64,000 nucleotides of DNA from a virus (IMGVR_UViG_638276473_000001:6798-70797); one strand, 5' to 3'. Shown: positions 2,179-28,902, counted from the stretch's first letter. Numbers and translations: made by a program. Notes: a model not told the origin generated them from the letters alone.

Positions 2179-2619
2179 ATGAGTACCGGACCCATCGATT
2201 CACCCACGCACGGAAACCACCTGATTCCCGTAGGGGACAGGCATGTCGAGGCAGTTTTCTACCCCGATGATCCGTTGTCAGAGGACACGAAGAAACGGTT
2301 GATTCTGGACTGCCATTCGTCCAAGAACGAACTGTGTGGATTGCTCGACGTACAACAGAGCATCTACTACATCGAAAACGTACACGAAATCGCTGAGTCG
2401 AACTTCTTTTTCGACAAGGACGAGTACCAAATTGCCATCAACGAAATCTTCGAAAACAATCCAGGGCATGCGAACCCGATTCTAGGCATTTGGCACACGC
2501 ATCCTACTAACATTCCATGGCCTTCCCCCAGAGATATACGCGGGTGGCCTGAGCCTGCTTTGCAATGGCGCTACTTCATAATCACCAATCATGAAGTGCT
2601 AGAGTGGCGTTTACTATGA
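2179..2619 (+). CDS. JAB/MPN (JAMM) metalloprotease
   Basis: Complete JAMM signature: E in NELCGLL, then WHTHP...PSPRD (E-xn-H-x-H-x7-S-x2-D). Confidence 0.9.
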   Translation: MSTGPIDSPTHGNHLIPVGDRHVEAVFYPDDPLSEDTKKRLILDCHSSKNELCGLLDVQQSIYYIENVHEIAESNFFFDKDEYQIAINEIFENNPGHANPILGIWHTHPTNIPWPSPRDIRGWPEPALQWRYFIITNHEVLEWRLL

Positions 2620-3521
2620 CCCGGCCATTGCCCCACGATGACCAGACCTCATTCGACACGCTGAGGCGACGATGGCTGACGAGATACGCACGAATTCAGA
2701 ACAAAACGGATGTGAAAGTACGCACTGCTTTGGTCGATGCCGCCGAGGATGCGTCCAACCGGTTAATTCTCGTAGGCCGAAGTTCTACATTCTCTGCGGG
2801 GGTCCGTACTGCGCAGATTCGACTTGCAATGAAGGAACTCAAGGAAGTTCATCGCGAACTCTTTGACGAGCTTCTACCGATCATCAAAGCCGGACAAAGT
2901 GAAGAAGCTGAGGCAGCCGTCGATGGACTCACCGAAACCGATAGACGTTACTTGCGCGCCGCCCTTCGTGACGCATCTTCTACGGCATACTTTGTTGAAT
3001 CTCAACGACAGGCTGCCCGCAATGGCGTCGCTCACGCGATTTCATCACTCCACAAAAGCCGTGAGCCTCTGTCAGCTAGAGTTTATCGAACACGGAGTCT
3101 GGCGAATAACTGGATACAACGTCTCGTAACGTCTTCGATTGTGAGGGGCGACAGTGCGCAGGACATCGCGAAAGCTGTCAGAGCACATATACGACCCGGC
3201 ACGCCCGGTGGGACGGCCTATGCGGCGTTGCGTTTGGGACGGACAGAGCTTAACAACGCTTTCCACGCCACTTCCATCGAAATTTCAAAGGACCGTCCAT
3301 GGGTTGAAGGCATGCGCTGGAACAACTCTCGGATTCATGAACCGGACCCGATGGAGATTTGCACGCGCCTCAACGGACAGATTTACACCGTCGAAACGGT
3401 CCCGAAAAAGCCTCACCCGCAGTGCAGGTGCTTTGTCACACCGAATCTGATCCCATTCGAGTTGTTTCTGACGCAGTTAGCAGCCGGTCAATACAGAGAG
3501 TGGACACAAAATGCAGCGTAA
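2616..3521 (+). CDS. MuF-like (SPP1 gp7-type) minor head protein
   Basis: RLGRTE motif, C-terminal C...PHPQCRC motif, located before the scaffold. Confidence 0.85.
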   Translation: MTRPLPHDDQTSFDTLRRRWLTRYARIQNKTDVKVRTALVDAAEDASNRLILVGRSSTFSAGVRTAQIRLAMKELKEVHRELFDELLPIIKAGQSEEAEAAVDGLTETDRRYLRAALRDASSTAYFVESQRQAARNGVAHAISSLHKSREPLSARVYRTRSLANNWIQRLVTSSIVRGDSAQDIAKAVRAHIRPGTPGGTAYAALRLGRTELNNAFHATSIEISKDRPWVEGMRWNNSRIHEPDPMEICTRLNGQIYTVETVPKKPHPQCRCFVTPNLIPFELFLTQLAAGQYREWTQNAA

Positions 3522-3564
3522 GAGTAATGTCGCCAGCAACCGGACACACGGAAAGGTCACTGAA

Positions 3565-4353
3565 ATGAACGCCATACCCCCAAAGCTTCTCGCGCAAATC
3601 GATCCGAAGGCGGCTGCCCTACGGGCATGGCCGATTTTCGGCGGTTCGTCTCCCACTCCCCCGGCAACGGCCACCCCTCCGGCCAATCCCGAACAGCAGC
3701 AGCCCAATCCCGCTGCAACACCGCCCGCAACGTCTCCGGCAGGCGCTCCGCAGACCGCCCAACAGCCTGGCGGGGCTGCCAGTGTGGACGTGAATCAGCT
3801 TCTCGCACAGGTCCAGTCGCTTTCGTCCCAGATTCAGCAGTTGCAGACTGAGAATCAGGGCTACAAGCAAAAGGAGACCGAGGCCGAGAACGCGAAGAAG
3901 ACGCGCGAACAGCAGTTGGAACAGACGATCCAGCAGAAGGATCAACAGATCGCCGCTGCGCAGAATCTCATCGCCCAGAAGTCGTTGGAGAACGCACTTC
4001 TCACGCACAAGGACTACCAGTGGCACGACGCCAACGACGCGTTGCTTTCACTGCGGGACGCCGAAGGCGTGAAAGTCACAGTGGACATCGACAAGCAAAT
4101 CGCCACCGTCGAGGGTCTGGACAACGCCGTCAAGGAACTGGCGACGAAAAAGCCGTGGATGCTTTCGAAAGGTCCCGAGCAGCAGCCCGATCCGAACAAC
4201 CCGCAGCAGCAGACCCCGCCAGCGGCTCCCGGTCGGCCCTCCGGCAAGCCTCCGGCTCCCCCGGCCAACCCCGACGCGGCCAAGGTCCAACAGCGTCAGG
4301 CGTTGGGCAAGAAATACTCAGCAATTCGCGGCGCACCGATTGTCGCCGGGTAG
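3565..4353 (+). CDS. Capsid scaffolding protein
   Basis: GAAAGG RBS; P/Q/A-rich low-complexity arms around a coiled-coil; upstream of decoration and capsid genes. Confidence 0.8.
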   Translation: MNAIPPKLLAQIDPKAAALRAWPIFGGSSPTPPATATPPANPEQQQPNPAATPPATSPAGAPQTAQQPGGAASVDVNQLLAQVQSLSSQIQQLQTENQGYKQKETEAENAKKTREQQLEQTIQQKDQQIAAAQNLIAQKSLENALLTHKDYQWHDANDALLSLRDAEGVKVTVDIDKQIATVEGLDNAVKELATKKPWMLSKGPEQQPDPNNPQQQTPPAAPGRPSGKPPAPPANPDAAKVQQRQALGKKYSAIRGAPIVAG

Positions 4354-4393
4354 GAATTCGGGCGTGTTCGCGTACTGATCCTGTAACCTTCGA

Positions 4394-4402
4394 TGCTAGG
4401 AT
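4394..4402 (+). promoter_or_regulatory. Extended -10 promoter (TGCTAGGAT) for capsid genes
   Basis: TGn-TAnnnT in the intergenic gap, followed by a GGAGG RBS before ATG 4433. Confidence 0.5.
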
Positions 4403-4432
4403 CAGTCGCGAACCGCCAATAGTGGAGGAAAA

Positions 4433-4906
4433 ATGAGCTTCCCGAATCTGACGACCAAGCCTCGTTGGGACAAGTACGACGGGTATGTCGGCAATTTCCG
4501 CGCTCCACTGGCCGCAGCCGTGAATCTCGCCACTCAGGCCAACCGCGTTCTGCCGGTGGGCATCAACGCTCAGGGCGCGGCGGTTCTCGGTGGCGCAGGC
4601 CAGACCGGAATCGTCGGCGTTGTCATCATCCCCGTGGGTACCGACATGAACGGCAACCTGCTCGACGGTGGGATCAACACCGGAGTCGGTGACATCTGCG
4701 ACGTGGGCAAGCACGGCGAAATCGTCAACTTCAAGACCACCGCCGCTGACGGCACACAGGGCGCACCGGCTGCCGGAACGAACTACTACGCCCATCCCAA
4801 CGGCGCAGTGGACGCGACCAAGGGCGCGGACGGCGTTTACATCGGTCACACGGTCGAAGCCGACCGCCTGATCGTCAACGTGAACGAGAAGGACGCCGCA
4901 GCGTAA
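4433..4906 (+). CDS. Capsid decoration / minor capsid protein
   Basis: 157-aa G/A/V-rich beta-type protein between scaffold and major capsid; strong RBS. Confidence 0.7.
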   Translation: MSFPNLTTKPRWDKYDGYVGNFRAPLAAAVNLATQANRVLPVGINAQGAAVLGGAGQTGIVGVVIIPVGTDMNGNLLDGGINTGVGDICDVGKHGEIVNFKTTAADGTQGAPAAGTNYYAHPNGAVDATKGADGVYIGHTVEADRLIVNVNEKDAAA

Positions 4907-4965
4907 TCGCGGCGAATTCGTACAGCAAACAGCTTCGAAATCGGAAAGTGAACGAAGGGAACGCC

Positions 4966-6240
4966 ATGACGACGGCACTCTTGGAGCGACCCAACGGAAG
5001 TGCGCGGTCGGCCAGCGACCTCGAAATCATGCCTCCGCATGATCCGCGCTTTCTCGCGCTGACGGCGTGGGGTTCTCTCGGCGGCGGTACCGCACCGGTA
5101 CGCCAAGAGGGGATCATGACCGGTGGCGATCTTGTCACCGCCACCGCCGATGGCACGGACCTCAACGCTCTGTGGAATGAGTTCGCTCTGACCACGGAGA
5201 TTTACAACGAGGAAATGGACCGACTGATCGAACTTCTGACGTTCAACGTCGAGGTTCCGGTCGAACCGGTCGTGCAGATCGGTGAGGTCACCTTCGAGGA
5301 AGCCTCCGAGCTTGGCGTGCCTCGCGGTGCCGGTCTGCCCATCGACGTGTTCCAGATGGGCTACGACCTGCGGCACTACGACAAGCGCAACGCGTACACG
5401 TGGATGTTCCTCGCGGACGCCGACGCTCGTCAGGTCGAGGCGATCCACAACGCGATTCTCTGGGCGCACAAGCGCCTCGTTTTCCGCAAGGTCATGGAAG
5501 CGTTGTTCGACAACCGCGTTCGTCGCGCGAACATCCGCAACCAGGCGTACAACGTCTACCCGCTCTACAACGGCACGGACGGCGTTGCACCGCCTCCCTT
5601 CGCGAACAACACGTTCGACGCAACGCACACGCATTACGTGCGGTCGGGCAACACCGCGCTTGATCCAGGCGATCTGGACACCCTTTACATGCTGCTGGCC
5701 GAGCACGGTTACAGCGCCGAGGGTGGCACCGAATTCCTCCTGCTGGTCAACAAGGCCGAAGCGGATGTGATTCGCACGTTCCGGCGCGGCGTCATGACCA
5801 ACGGTGTGACGGCGACCTACGACTTCATTCAGTCGCCCGGTCAGCCCGCGACCGTTCTCCCCAACGCCGAGGGTCTGCTTGGCACTCAGCCGGGAGACGT
5901 GTTCCGAGGCATCCCGATCATCGGCAAGTACGGGCACCTGCACATCGCGGAGAACACCTACATCCCCGCTGGGTACCTGTGCCTCATCGGTTCCGGTGGC
6001 CGGTTCGACCTTCGCAACCCGGTCGGCCTGCGCGCACACCAGAACCCGTCGATGCAGGGGCTTCGCATCATCCCCGGCAACTACCAGCGGTACCCGCTGA
6101 TCGACGCGTTCTACGCCTGGTCGGGCGGCACGGGCATTCGCCAGCGCGGCGGTGCTGCGATCATGCAGTTGGGTGCTCTCCCGCACAGCAACTACGTGAT
6201 CCCGCAGCAGTTCCGCAAGGGCGGCGGCTTCCTGGTGTAA
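4966..6240 (+). CDS. Major capsid protein
   Basis: 424 aa, GAAGGGA RBS, strongly biased codons, synteny, followed by a hairpin. Confidence 0.88.
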   Translation: MTTALLERPNGSARSASDLEIMPPHDPRFLALTAWGSLGGGTAPVRQEGIMTGGDLVTATADGTDLNALWNEFALTTEIYNEEMDRLIELLTFNVEVPVEPVVQIGEVTFEEASELGVPRGAGLPIDVFQMGYDLRHYDKRNAYTWMFLADADARQVEAIHNAILWAHKRLVFRKVMEALFDNRVRRANIRNQAYNVYPLYNGTDGVAPPPFANNTFDATHTHYVRSGNTALDPGDLDTLYMLLAEHGYSAEGGTEFLLLVNKAEADVIRTFRRGVMTNGVTATYDFIQSPGQPATVLPNAEGLLGTQPGDVFRGIPIIGKYGHLHIAENTYIPAGYLCLIGSGGRFDLRNPVGLRAHQNPSMQGLRIIPGNYQRYPLIDAFYAWSGGTGIRQRGGAAIMQLGALPHSNYVIPQQFRKGGGFLV

Positions 6241-6312: not shown

Positions 6313-7134
6313 ATGAGCTTGGTTCTGGACCCGAATCGTCCGTGGACGAAGGAGGAAAAGGAATGGGCGCGGTCGTCCGGTCGAGGCTATCTGGTCGAGA
6401 CCAACGAGCGTCGTTTTCCTGGTGGCAAGGCGAAGAACGCTCTGCCGCACGAACAGGCCGGTGAGCCACCGGAGTCCGCGCAGTTCGGCCAGCTTGGCGA
6501 AATGGCGCGTCAGGCAGCCGTTTACGACGTGGGCGGCGTTCCGTTGCCGGGTACCACGCTGGACTACGACACTGGTCGCGCGTTGCAGTTCGACGCCGAA
6601 GGCAACGGCGTAGCCGTCGAGCCGGAAATTCCGGTCAACTCCCCCGGCGCTTTCGCCACCGTCGCGTTGCGTCAGGAATCCGAGGGATTCGGTTCCTACA
6701 GCGATCAGGGCGACGACGTTGACGAAGACATCATCGATTACGTCCTCTCGTTGAAGACGAAGGATGATGTGAAGGCCGCGATTGACGAGGCCAACAAGAA
6801 GGCTCCCGCCGAGTACCGCCAGACCTATTCGTCTGGTGACGACCGGGATGCTTTGAACGACAAGCTCGCTCTCGTCTTGCAGGACACCCGTCACCCCGAG
6901 GCCGCAGCGCAGGCACGTAACCTCGCTCAGCGCACGCAGCCTCCGGCAGTGCCCGACGAAGACGATCAGTCCATGGTCGCTCAGAACGTCGGCTTCACCG
7001 ACGATTTCGCCGAGGGCGACCCGTCTCCGGCTTCCGGTGAGGGCGACGACGCCGCTTCGCAGGCTCAGAACGACGGGCCGGTCACCGACGCGGAGCCGGT
7101 CAAGGCCGAGGCGAAGAAGTCCACCAAGAAGTAG
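6313..7134 (+). CDS. Acidic virion-region protein of unknown function
   Basis: 273 aa, GAGG RBS, between capsid and connector genes. Confidence 0.75.
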   Translation: MSLVLDPNRPWTKEEKEWARSSGRGYLVETNERRFPGGKAKNALPHEQAGEPPESAQFGQLGEMARQAAVYDVGGVPLPGTTLDYDTGRALQFDAEGNGVAVEPEIPVNSPGAFATVALRQESEGFGSYSDQGDDVDEDIIDYVLSLKTKDDVKAAIDEANKKAPAEYRQTYSSGDDRDALNDKLALVLQDTRHPEAAAQARNLAQRTQPPAVPDEDDQSMVAQNVGFTDDFAEGDPSPASGEGDDAASQAQNDGPVTDAEPVKAEAKKSTKK

Positions 7135-27812: not shown

Positions 27813-28013
27813 GTGTTTTGCCGTCATCCGCATTGCGGCAAGCCGATCAAGTTGATCGAGAATGTTGACGGCGCAGCGGCGTGGGTACACGTAGAACCGG
27901 GGAAATCACCGTATCGTGAGTGCGAAGGTTCCACGATAGCAGAACCTCCGAAAACAATCGGCGAATGGCTGGCCGAATTAACGCAGCCGATCAAAAAGGA
28001 CGATCATGGTTAA
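27813..28013 (+). CDS. Small Cys/His protein
   Basis: CRHPHCGKPI...WVH...C; AGGA RBS before GTG. Confidence 0.6.
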   Translation: MFCRHPHCGKPIKLIENVDGAAAWVHVEPGKSPYRECEGSTIAEPPKTIGEWLAELTQPIKKDDHG

Positions 28014-28902
28014 TTGGGCCAAGCAAAAGGCACACGCCACAATGCTTCTCGCTTGCGTCTTCTGCCTCATGGTGGGATGCGCAACCGCAATCATCATCGG
28101 ACGCACTGCACCAGCGGACTATTGGATCATCTTCGGCGGCAACACCGACAAGGGCAACGGCCAAGGCGGTGGCATGGCGCGCGACCAGATGGTTGCAGGC
28201 GGTTGGGTGAGCTACGAGAACAGCTTCCAGGTGACATGGAACGCCGACATCGCCGCTGGCACAGTGGATCAGACGAATGCAGCAATGCCCGCTGGCAAGG
28301 ATGCCGTGTCCAAGCTTTGTGCCGGAAGGCGTTGCATTATCGCAGGATTCAGTCTGGGATCATCGCCTGCAATCCAATTGGCCGCAGAGCTAGGCATTCC
28401 CGCAGATCAATTGTGGTTGTTCGGAGCACCGCAACCCTCCACGGGTGTGTGGCACCAGCAGTACCAAGACAATCCGTTCGTACAGCCGTGGATTCAAAAC
28501 GTGGGCAAGCTCAATCCTGATCAGCTACCTCCGGCTGGTTCTCACCACGTCTATCACGCACGCGATCCGTACGGCAACGCCGCTCCGCAATGCAGCGGAC
28601 CCGGCCTGTTCGCATTGACCTTGGCAGAGCACCGCATTCTTTCTCCCGGCGAAGCATCGCACGTGTGGACGGGACCTGACGGCGTGATCAATCACGAAGG
28701 CGGCTATACCGGCCCAATTGGCTTGCCCGCCAGCGGTGCTGATCCTTCGCAGCCCTGGGCCGGGTGCTTGTTCAACGACTGGAAATCAACTCCCAGCAGC
28801 CCCGGCGACCAGACCACCGAAGGTGGGTTGCCATCGGGAGGCAATGGCCCGTCCCTGCCGAGCCTGCCCGTGAACCCTCCGTTCCCCACACCTGGCGGGT
28901 AA
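28006..28902 (+). CDS. Exported PE-PPE/cutinase-like serine hydrolase
   Basis: N-terminal hydrophobic helix, GFSLG elbow, downstream D and H candidates, Pro-rich tail. Confidence 0.72.
   Translation: MVNWAKQKAHATMLLACVFCLMVGCATAIIIGRTAPADYWIIFGGNTDKGNGQGGGMARDQMVAGGWVSYENSFQVTWNADIAAGTVDQTNAAMPAGKDAVSKLCAGRRCIIAGFSLGSSPAIQLAAELGIPADQLWLFGAPQPSTGVWHQQYQDNPFVQPWIQNVGKLNPDQLPPAGSHHVYHARDPYGNAAPQCSGPGLFALTLAEHRILSPGEASHVWTGPDGVINHEGGYTGPIGLPASGADPSQPWAGCLFNDWKSTPSSPGDQTTEGGLPSGGNGPSLPSLPVNPPFPTPGG

Follow-up and report, generated by a model that had tools for sequence, protein, structure and literature searches.

A JAB/JAMM metalloprotease as candidate head-maturation enzyme for matched Gly-Gly leaders in Patience-like actinobacteriophages

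Results

Head genes of a Barnyard-like mycobacteriophage

We analysed a 64,000-nucleotide stretch of virus DNA (bases 6798-70797 of IMGVR_UViG_638276473_000001, a complete virus genome record of 70,797 bp; hereafter the window), in which a gene for a JAB/JAMM (MPN+) zinc metalloprotease lies just upstream of the genes for a scaffolding protein and a major capsid protein that carry the same N-terminal motif. The window belongs to a Barnyard-like mycobacteriophage: its bases 2179-6240 align over their full length to phage DrLupo (genus Barnyardvirus) with 84% nucleotide identity, and terminase and portal genes lie directly upstream of the window, as in DrLupo. On the + strand, a gene for a conserved protein of 211 amino acids is followed in order by the genes for JAB, a MuF-like protein, the scaffold, a minor capsid protein and the major capsid protein, and then by connector and tail genes.

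The JAB gene (2179-2619) encodes 146 amino acids and is the candidate for the leader peptidase discussed below. The MuF-like minor capsid protein (2604-3521, 305 amino acids; Pfam PF04233, 38.2 bits, and PHROG head morphogenesis families) is without a protease domain, and no HExxH motif is visible in its translation. The scaffolding protein occupies 3511-4353 (Pfam Phage_scaffold, 39.4 bits; phrog_4866, E = 1.6e-62). The minor capsid protein at 4433-4906 (Protein Data Bank [PDB] 8giu gp22, E = 5.6e-50; 8saj gp16, E = 1.2e-19), which forms a capsid-surface trimer in relatives, is without the leader motif. The major capsid protein, starting at 4948 or 4966 and ending at 6240, matches phrog_3990 (E = 4.4e-166) and PDB 8giu (E = 3.6e-185, aligned from query residue 45). 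The end of the JAB gene overlaps the start of the MuF gene by 16 nucleotides (2604-2619), and the end of the MuF gene overlaps the first scaffold ATG by 11 nucleotides (3511-3521); these overlapping ends suggest translational coupling of the three genes.

A motif shared by scaffold and capsid

Translation of 3511-4353 and of 4948-6240 gives the motif DP[KR]xxALxAWxx[FL]GG in both proteins: DPKAAALRAWPIFGG in the scaffold (D31-G45, 3601-3645) and DPRFLALTAWGSLGG in the capsid (D32-G46, 5041-5085), each preceded by PP. The original prediction, made from the sequence alone, had quoted these two peptides, and translation recovers both exactly where it had placed them. They are identical at 8 of 15 positions, with K/R and F/L exchanges in addition. 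The local alignment score of the two N-terminal 60-residue stretches is 47, the highest of 1,485 N-terminal pairs from 55 + strand open reading frames (ORFs) of the window (the second highest is 43), and shuffled pairs reach 47 in 6 of 5,000 trials. The match in the window alone is thus only moderately unlikely by chance, suggestive rather than compelling, and its real support comes from relatives. In DrLupo the motif is kept in scaffold and capsid alike, and for each of the two proteins the PHROG family profile begins within it.

The scaffold may start at ATG 3511 or at an alternative ATG at 3565, which follows GGAAAGG, and includes the motif either way; the capsid start is likely to be ATG 4966, which has GAAGGG 6 nucleotides upstream and equals the DrLupo start. 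The scaffold leader would run to G45 (3645), with a predicted mature start at S46 (3646), and the capsid leader to G47 (5088), with a predicted mature start at T48 (5089), which corresponds by alignment to Thr20 of the capsid of phage Patience. The new scaffold N-terminus first proposed, SSPTPP, is kept; that proposed for the capsid, GTAPVR, shifts by one residue to TAPVR (a cut after G47) on alignment with Patience FGG/TAPVRQEG, where the slash marks the cut.

Another ORF of the window, at 28006-28902 (298 amino acids, unknown family, without a PHROG match), reads ...DYWIIFGG/NTDK about 45 residues from its start and resembles WPIFGG/S of the scaffold.

Published N-termini of a relative point to the same bond

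The capsid of Patience is 73% identical to that of the window from residue 46 on. In Patience gp21, the positional and sequence homologue of the window scaffold, the N-terminal-most peptides found by mass spectrometry begin at residue 35, after a Gly; this start is non-tryptic, and the authors could explain it neither by trypsin nor by translation initiation (PMC4324244). The protein reads ...AKRVLPIFGG/T35SPE. Only three spectra of gp21 were obtained from particles (PMC4324244), as expected for a scaffold. A second and independent measurement concerns the capsid itself: in a 2.4 Å cryo-electron microscopy (cryo-EM) study the Patience capsid model was trimmed to Thr20 and the Adjutor model to Asn28 (PMC11965321). 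Patience gp23, the capsid protein, reads ...VPVFPIFGG/T20APVRQEG, so that the model starts directly after PIFGG; the Adjutor capsid reads ...GLSGH-D-N28, and its model starts two residues after GLSGH. By homology to these two Patience measurements, removal of the scaffold and capsid leaders after Gly-Gly is well supported. In the parts cited here, neither Patience paper links the gp21 end at T35 with the capsid end at T20, and capsid cleavage, or a protease that would carry it out, is a subject of neither PMC11965321 nor PMC7150772 (a structure paper from 2020). For Barnyard or cluster D capsids, our literature searches turned up no useful N-terminal sequencing.

We also considered a third possible substrate. 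The C-terminal half of Patience gp24 is absent from virions (PMC4324244). Its homologue in the window (6313-7134) has a conserved ...VYD[VK]GG/[AV]PLPGT at about residue 70-75 in four phages, and no conserved Gly-Gly near the mid-protein point that the Patience data imply.

Leaders match within a phage and vary between phages

The capsid family comprises 159 phage records found by tblastn and 542 IMG/VR relatives. We compared 17 named phages of Mycobacterium, Gordonia, Microbacterium, Arthrobacter and Curtobacterium, and in all 17 the N-termini of scaffold and capsid include a hydrophobic stretch ending in Gly-x before an acidic or Thr start. Within one phage the scaffold leader resembles the capsid leader, and both end in a hydrophobic residue, Gly and a small residue, directly before the conserved mature capsid sequence, in every relative examined. 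The leader ends are KFFAFGGDGG in both proteins of Djokovic and PIFGGT.P in both proteins of Patience; in Adjutor they are FL..GL.LSGHD (scaffold) and FL..GLSGHD (capsid), and in Cuke LPFGGED and LPYGGED, respectively. Mean local alignment scores are 35.9 for leader pairs of the same phage vs 24.3 across phages, and the summed same-phage score was reached in none of 20,000 permutations, a result that, given the close kinship among several of these phages, is not a clean probability. Matched scaffold-capsid pairs recur in metagenomic loci. The original prediction could have failed on relatives that carry JAB and not the motif; we looked for such cases, and leaders are kept in the relatives examined.

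Ninety capsids with a usable leader were reduced to 56 non-redundant N-termini (we set aside six that lacked the anchor motif and one that was truncated), aligned in a register that is good to about one residue. The second residue before the predicted cut (P2) is Gly in 53 of the 56, and the residue immediately before the cut (P1) is G in 24, A in 13, S in five, E in five, D in three, H in two, Q in two, R in one and T in one. Alignments of the window capsid to its relatives by tblastn begin right at the predicted cut. The predicted cleavage site is Gly followed by a mostly small residue and is not strictly Gly-Gly; of the diglycine-directed system first proposed, removal of leaders after Gly-Gly agrees with the Patience data, and the strict diglycine gives way to the varied P1. 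Even among phages of one host strain, Mycobacterium smegmatis mc2 155, leaders and P1 vary (GG/T, GH/D, GG/E, GN/E, GR/E). Because phages of one host differ in this way and yet match between scaffold and capsid within each phage, a phage-specific enzyme is favoured over a single host enzyme.

The JAB protein has the features of an active protease

The JAB ORF matches Prok-JAB (PF14464) with 37.3 bits (cut-off 25; E = 2.7e-09), and a six-frame search of the genome returned it as the sole match to this family (37.2 bits). Its catalytic residues are E51 (2329-2331), H106 (2494-2496), H108 (2500-2502), S116 (2524-2526) and D119 (2533-2535), arranged as E51...H106-T-H108-PTNIPWP-S116-PR-D119, which is an intact HxHx7SxxD motif; among 84 JAB homologues E51, H106, H108 and D119 are invariant and S116 is at least 90% conserved. 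The AlphaFold2 model (predicted local distance difference test [pLDDT] 90.1, predicted template modelling score 0.83) was compared by Foldseek with known structures. Its top match is Pyrococcus furiosus JAMM1 (5ld9/5lda; for 5ld9, E = 1.2e-05 and template modelling [TM] scores of 0.58/0.66), followed by CSN5, Cap3, Rpn11 and AMSH-LP. Profile, residues and predicted fold thus agree in giving JAB the features of an active JAMM protease, and the Pfam match together with the five residues upholds the earlier identification of a JAB with an intact JAMM motif upstream of the head genes.

Searches of the whole 70,797-bp genome with Peptidase_S78 (PF04586), CLP_protease (PF00574) and Peptidase_S49 (PF01343) gave no match at E<=1, with positive controls, S77 (T4 gp21) not being searched; the lack of an HK97-type or ClpP-type head protease, first remarked on for the window, in this way extends to the part of the genome upstream of it. 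There is likewise no match in the phage genome to Prp (PF04327), the family of the host enzyme used by staphylococcal phage 80alpha. The same profile matches 6 of 14 control genomes; Corynebacterium glutamicum, the sole actinobacterium among the 14, is unmatched. JAB is the only protease-like gene that we found in the genome. In the GenBank records of some relatives, annotators had already guessed at 'protease', 'metalloprotease' or 'capsid maturation protease' for the JAB gene.

Existing annotation names another candidate. The basic, conserved 211-amino-acid protein (1540-2175, + strand; phrog_12708) is called 'capsid maturation protease' in the DrLupo gp18 record and by the label of phrog_12708. 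We rejected it on the grounds that it belongs to no Pfam family and has no protease-like fold match: none of its 106 homologues has a precomputed Pfam domain, and its AlphaFold2 model (pLDDT 69) has no PDB fold match at E<=0.001 (TM<=0.23). Its homologue in Patience, gp18, is listed as a virion protein (PMC4324244), and the 211-amino-acid protein is probably a virion or internal protein. Upstream of it on the + strand lie three tandem genes for small, very basic proteins (238-648, 648-947 and 944-1540) with a near-identical start peptide, ...MT[AP].R.AALRKAQL[AV]SARKRR.... Many homologues of the 211-amino-acid family in other phages begin with this same peptide; the N-terminus of the window's own copy differs from it. 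The peptide resembles a modular tag, placed at the N-terminus of basic proteins that are internal or belong to the virion.

Two relatives have a longer MuF-like protein than the window: Send513 gp12 (L005 2618-5188) and Indlulamithi gp8 (L009 3341-5281) carry a C-terminal HExxH (THEFGHV and THEYGHV, respectively).

Co-occurrence with the capsid family and exchange of the slot

Twelve of the 17 named phages have a JAB with HxHx7SxxD between portal and scaffold, in the gene order of the window. It lies elsewhere in the genome in Shrew (33.0 bits, E = 1e-14) and Triscuit (35.4 bits, E = 2e-14), the E values being those from our own hidden Markov model (HMM), and a probable JAB lies elsewhere in Wollypog (E = 7e-07 with our own HMM; hhalign probability 85%, N-terminal half). 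A possible zincin in Ajin, gp14 as 'Met-zincin' (23.3 bits, cut-off 24.2), was rejected, HExxH being present neither in Ajin gp14 nor in Hager gp14. None of five unrelated mycobacteriophages (L5, Bxb1, TM4, Rosebush and Giles) has a PF14464 match at E<=1.

Among IMG/VR loci we examined the best 80 of the 542 relatives, and JAB is found in 54 of these 80. Where at least 4 kb precede the capsid gene, 41 of 46 loci have JAB on the same strand, 1.7-4.8 kb upstream. The five loci without an upstream JAB have no PF14464 match anywhere in their records, one of which is 94% and another 84% complete. Locus L092 is too short to judge, its MuF ORF running off the end. Among phage records, 61 match JAB.

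In some relatives the JAB slot holds a different peptidase. Two loci, L075 (3775-4113) and L084 (7414-7713), encode a DUF6527 protein between portal and MuF (36.8 and 40.1 bits, cut-off 23.6), and two others, L100 and L104, have in the JAB slot a 166-170-amino-acid protein with HExxH and weak M78/SprT-like matches; all four loci keep matched leaders that end in GG or GA. A preprint reports that DUF6527 (BubE) is a Ser-His protease whose targets are peptide and isopeptide bonds at the Gly that ends a bacterial ubiquitin-like protein (Ubl; bioRxiv 10.1101/2024.11.21.623953). A swap of peptidases in the slot while the leader motif is kept would be expected of a slot coding for the leader peptidase. 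Homologues of DUF6527 occur by tblastn in 267 phage records, mostly of large Salmonella, Klebsiella and Escherichia phages, and are all annotated as hypothetical.

Discussion

A proposed cleavage pathway

We propose that scaffold and capsid are each made with an N-terminal leader (about 27-45 residues in the scaffold and about 41 in the capsid), both ending in ...A-L-x-A-W-x-x-[FL]-G-G. While the head is being assembled, the JAB/JAMM enzyme of the phage would bind the extended leader tail, much as JAMM deubiquitinases bind the ...LRGG tails of Ubls, and would hydrolyse the peptide bond after the last Gly, giving a scaffold that begins at SSPTPP and a capsid that begins at TAPVRQEG. The leader probably also has a role in assembly, as in 80alpha, and the cut may not be essential. 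That the same cut is made in this phage, that JAB makes it, and when it is made, we infer from the comparisons above. The idea that a deubiquitinase-family enzyme clips both leaders accordingly divides into two parts: leader removal, which has the Patience data behind it, and JAB as the enzyme, which is supported and unproven. The support comes from JAB being the sole protease-like gene, from its invariant catalytic residues and from its co-occurrence with the capsid family, and on these grounds JAB as leader peptidase is the best available explanation, one toward which we lean slightly.

Several points weigh against this explanation. The case for JAB acting on the leaders is a comparative one, and inheritance of a single gene module by common descent might by itself account for the co-occurrence of JAB with the capsid family. 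JAMM enzymes recognise a folded ubiquitin-like domain plus its tail, and the substrate here would be a short leader. Residues found at P1 also include A, S, H, Q, N and R, so that 'diglycine-directed' is too narrow a term. Hager and Ajin have only weak JAMM-like ORFs (16.7 and 20.9 bits; hhalign probability 14% and 40%), the JAB genes of Shrew and Triscuit lie several kb away from the head genes, and Send513 and Indlulamithi hold, besides JAB, a second candidate in the zincin-like HExxH domain fused to MuF. It is a complication, too, that leaders are kept in the four relatives whose JAB slot holds a different peptidase, and the exchange of JAB for DUF6527 would equally suit a deubiquitinase aimed at Ubl-based host defence. 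Finally, the Patience proteomics paper places the capsid cut elsewhere, between residues 82 and 83 (PMC4324244). This site conflicts with our reading, and we did not adopt it because it clashes with the cryo-EM paper, which cites the capsid residues Thr20, Glu26 and Asp40 by number, all of them below 83 (PMC11965321). In the Patience capsid (L003 14060-15262) R24 is followed by no further Lys or Arg until R97, so that the expected tryptic products are TAPVR and, next to it, a peptide of 73 residues, a spacing that would keep the real N-terminus out of view in tryptic mass spectrometry.

The strongest competing account, which we consider unlikely though deserving of weight, is that a host protease or some unrecognised phage protein, rather than JAB, removes the leaders and that JAB does something else, for example stripping host-defence Ubl conjugates from virion proteins. 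In 80alpha a host enzyme does process both capsid and scaffold (PMC5744158), and in bacterial Ubl systems JAB and DUF6527 alike serve as deubiquitinase-type enzymes (bioRxiv 10.1101/2024.11.21.623953). The persistence of the leader-end motif where JAB has been replaced, the spread of DUF6527 through large enterobacterial phages and the position of JAB away from the head genes of Shrew and Triscuit would all fit such an account. A host enzyme of the Prp type is, however, disfavoured by the lack of a Prp match in the phage and in Corynebacterium glutamicum, and any single host enzyme by the wide differences in leader and P1 among phages of one host strain, in each of which scaffold and capsid nevertheless match. 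The distribution of JAB, present in nearly all of the capsid family vs none of the five unrelated mycobacteriophages, also speaks against this account. As for another phage protein, the 211-amino-acid product that is labelled a protease lacks a protease-like fold, and Shrew and Triscuit are without MuF in the portal-to-capsid interval and still have the leaders.

Two further accounts would do without cleavage at the motif. The motif might serve assembly or targeting alone (for example, docking on the portal, the scaffold core or MuF) and not be removed in this phage. The N-terminal sequence of the 80alpha scaffold is indeed needed for assembly and its cleavage is dispensable (PMC5744158), and an N-terminus that is disordered and uncut would also yield a capsid model starting at Thr20. 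We regard this as improbable, given the non-tryptic N-terminus of Patience gp21 exactly after Gly-Gly (PMC4324244), the first ordered capsid residue at the same bond (PMC11965321), and a small-residue pair (Gly plus G, A or S) at one position in 53 of 56 proteins, which is typical of a cleavage site. Still less credible, and in our judgement very improbable, is that the similarity arose by chance or that the true starts lie downstream of the motif (for example, at ATG 5116). The shuffling result for the window pair would allow chance on its own, and ATG 5116 is also preceded by a purine-rich stretch; against this stand the motif in both DrLupo proteins, the two PHROG profiles that start inside it, and the recurrence of matched leaders across the capsid family. 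Moreover, the stretch TAPVRQEGIM, which precedes ATG 5116, is shared without change by Patience and is visible in the Patience capsid structure.

Relation to known proteases and leaders

Known JAMM/MPN+ enzymes (JAMM1 5ld9/5lda, Rpn11, CSN5, AMSH and CBASS Cap3 9ild) resemble the window JAB in the E...HxHx7SxxD residues, the Prok-JAB match, the fold and, as proposed, a cut after a Gly-Gly tail. They differ in their substrates, folded beta-grasp proteins or the C-terminus of a CD-NTase, and in that the modifier is released or recycled, whereas for the window JAB the 'modifier' would be a disposable leader of 27-45 residues and the useful product the head protein downstream of it. BubE/DUF6527 occupies the JAB slot in two loci of the same capsid family and shares the reported cut at a C-terminal Gly (bioRxiv 10.1101/2024.11.21.623953); it is not present in the window, and its phage copies are known by profile match.

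The canonical prohead proteases (HK97 gp4 of S78, T4 gp21 of S77, ClpP-like S14 enzymes and lambda C of S49) share with JAB the gene position between portal and capsid and, as proposed, a role in trimming scaffold and capsid during head maturation. They are unrelated to it in fold and catalytic type, and they often cut off a long delta domain or break the scaffold down; the cut proposed here would take away no more than a short leader. JAB also matches phrog_30 (E = 8e-07), whose label 'tail protein' presumably comes from phage lambda tail protein K (MPN plus NlpC/P60) and its relatives. Lambda K is likewise an MPN/JAB domain within a phage structural gene cluster; the window JAB, in contrast, is a stand-alone protein of 146 amino acids in the head module, overlaps the MuF gene and lies 8.7 kb upstream of the tape-measure gene. 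A more distant comparison is with the double-glycine leaders of bacteriocins, which are short and N-terminal, end in Gly-Gly or Gly-Ala after hydrophobic positions, and are cut there by C39 peptidase domains; the enzyme there is a cysteine peptidase joined to an exporter, and the system has no connection with virion assembly.

The closest parallel is 80alpha. In that phage the host cysteine protease Prp trims the N-termini of capsid and scaffold (PMC5744158). As there, scaffold and capsid bear a short N-terminal leader with a shared motif that is cut at a defined bond (cleavage being supported here in Patience), and there is no HK97-type protease. The difference lies in the enzyme: host Prp, which also processes ribosomal protein L27, in the one case, and in the other a phage-encoded JAMM as candidate, cutting after Gly-Gly or Gly-small. 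We view the process as resembling 80alpha-like dual N-terminal processing, in which the phage-encoded JAMM, with a DUF6527 or HExxH substitute in some relatives, would be the new element.

Significance

To our knowledge, the head-maturation proteases of tailed phages belong to few families, namely the HK97/T4/herpesvirus assemblin fold, the ClpP/S49-like enzymes and host Prp, and our literature searches on JAB, JAMM or deubiquitinases in phage capsid or prohead maturation found no earlier description. The general proposition, to which we assign even chances, is that a JAMM enzyme of the deubiquitinase family is the head-maturation protease of Patience-like actinobacteriophages with matched Gly-Gly/Gly-small leaders, and that its slot is exchanged among unrelated peptidases including DUF6527/BubE. 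If true, JAMM would constitute a mechanistically different, zinc-dependent class of head-maturation protease, and two unexplained observations on Patience, the odd N-terminus of gp21 and the capsid model that begins at Thr20, would be explained. Annotations would be corrected in more than 150 sequenced phages, in which JAB is variously labelled 'tail protein', 'protease' or 'hypothetical' and an unrelated basic protein is called 'capsid maturation protease'. Protease and leader would form a compact pair with phage-specific recognition, directly testable in M. smegmatis. Phage assembly would, moreover, be linked to the bacterial ubiquitin-like toolkit (JAB and DUF6527), and peptidases that read the C-terminal tails of Ubls would have a second life, and possibly their origin, in virus morphogenesis.

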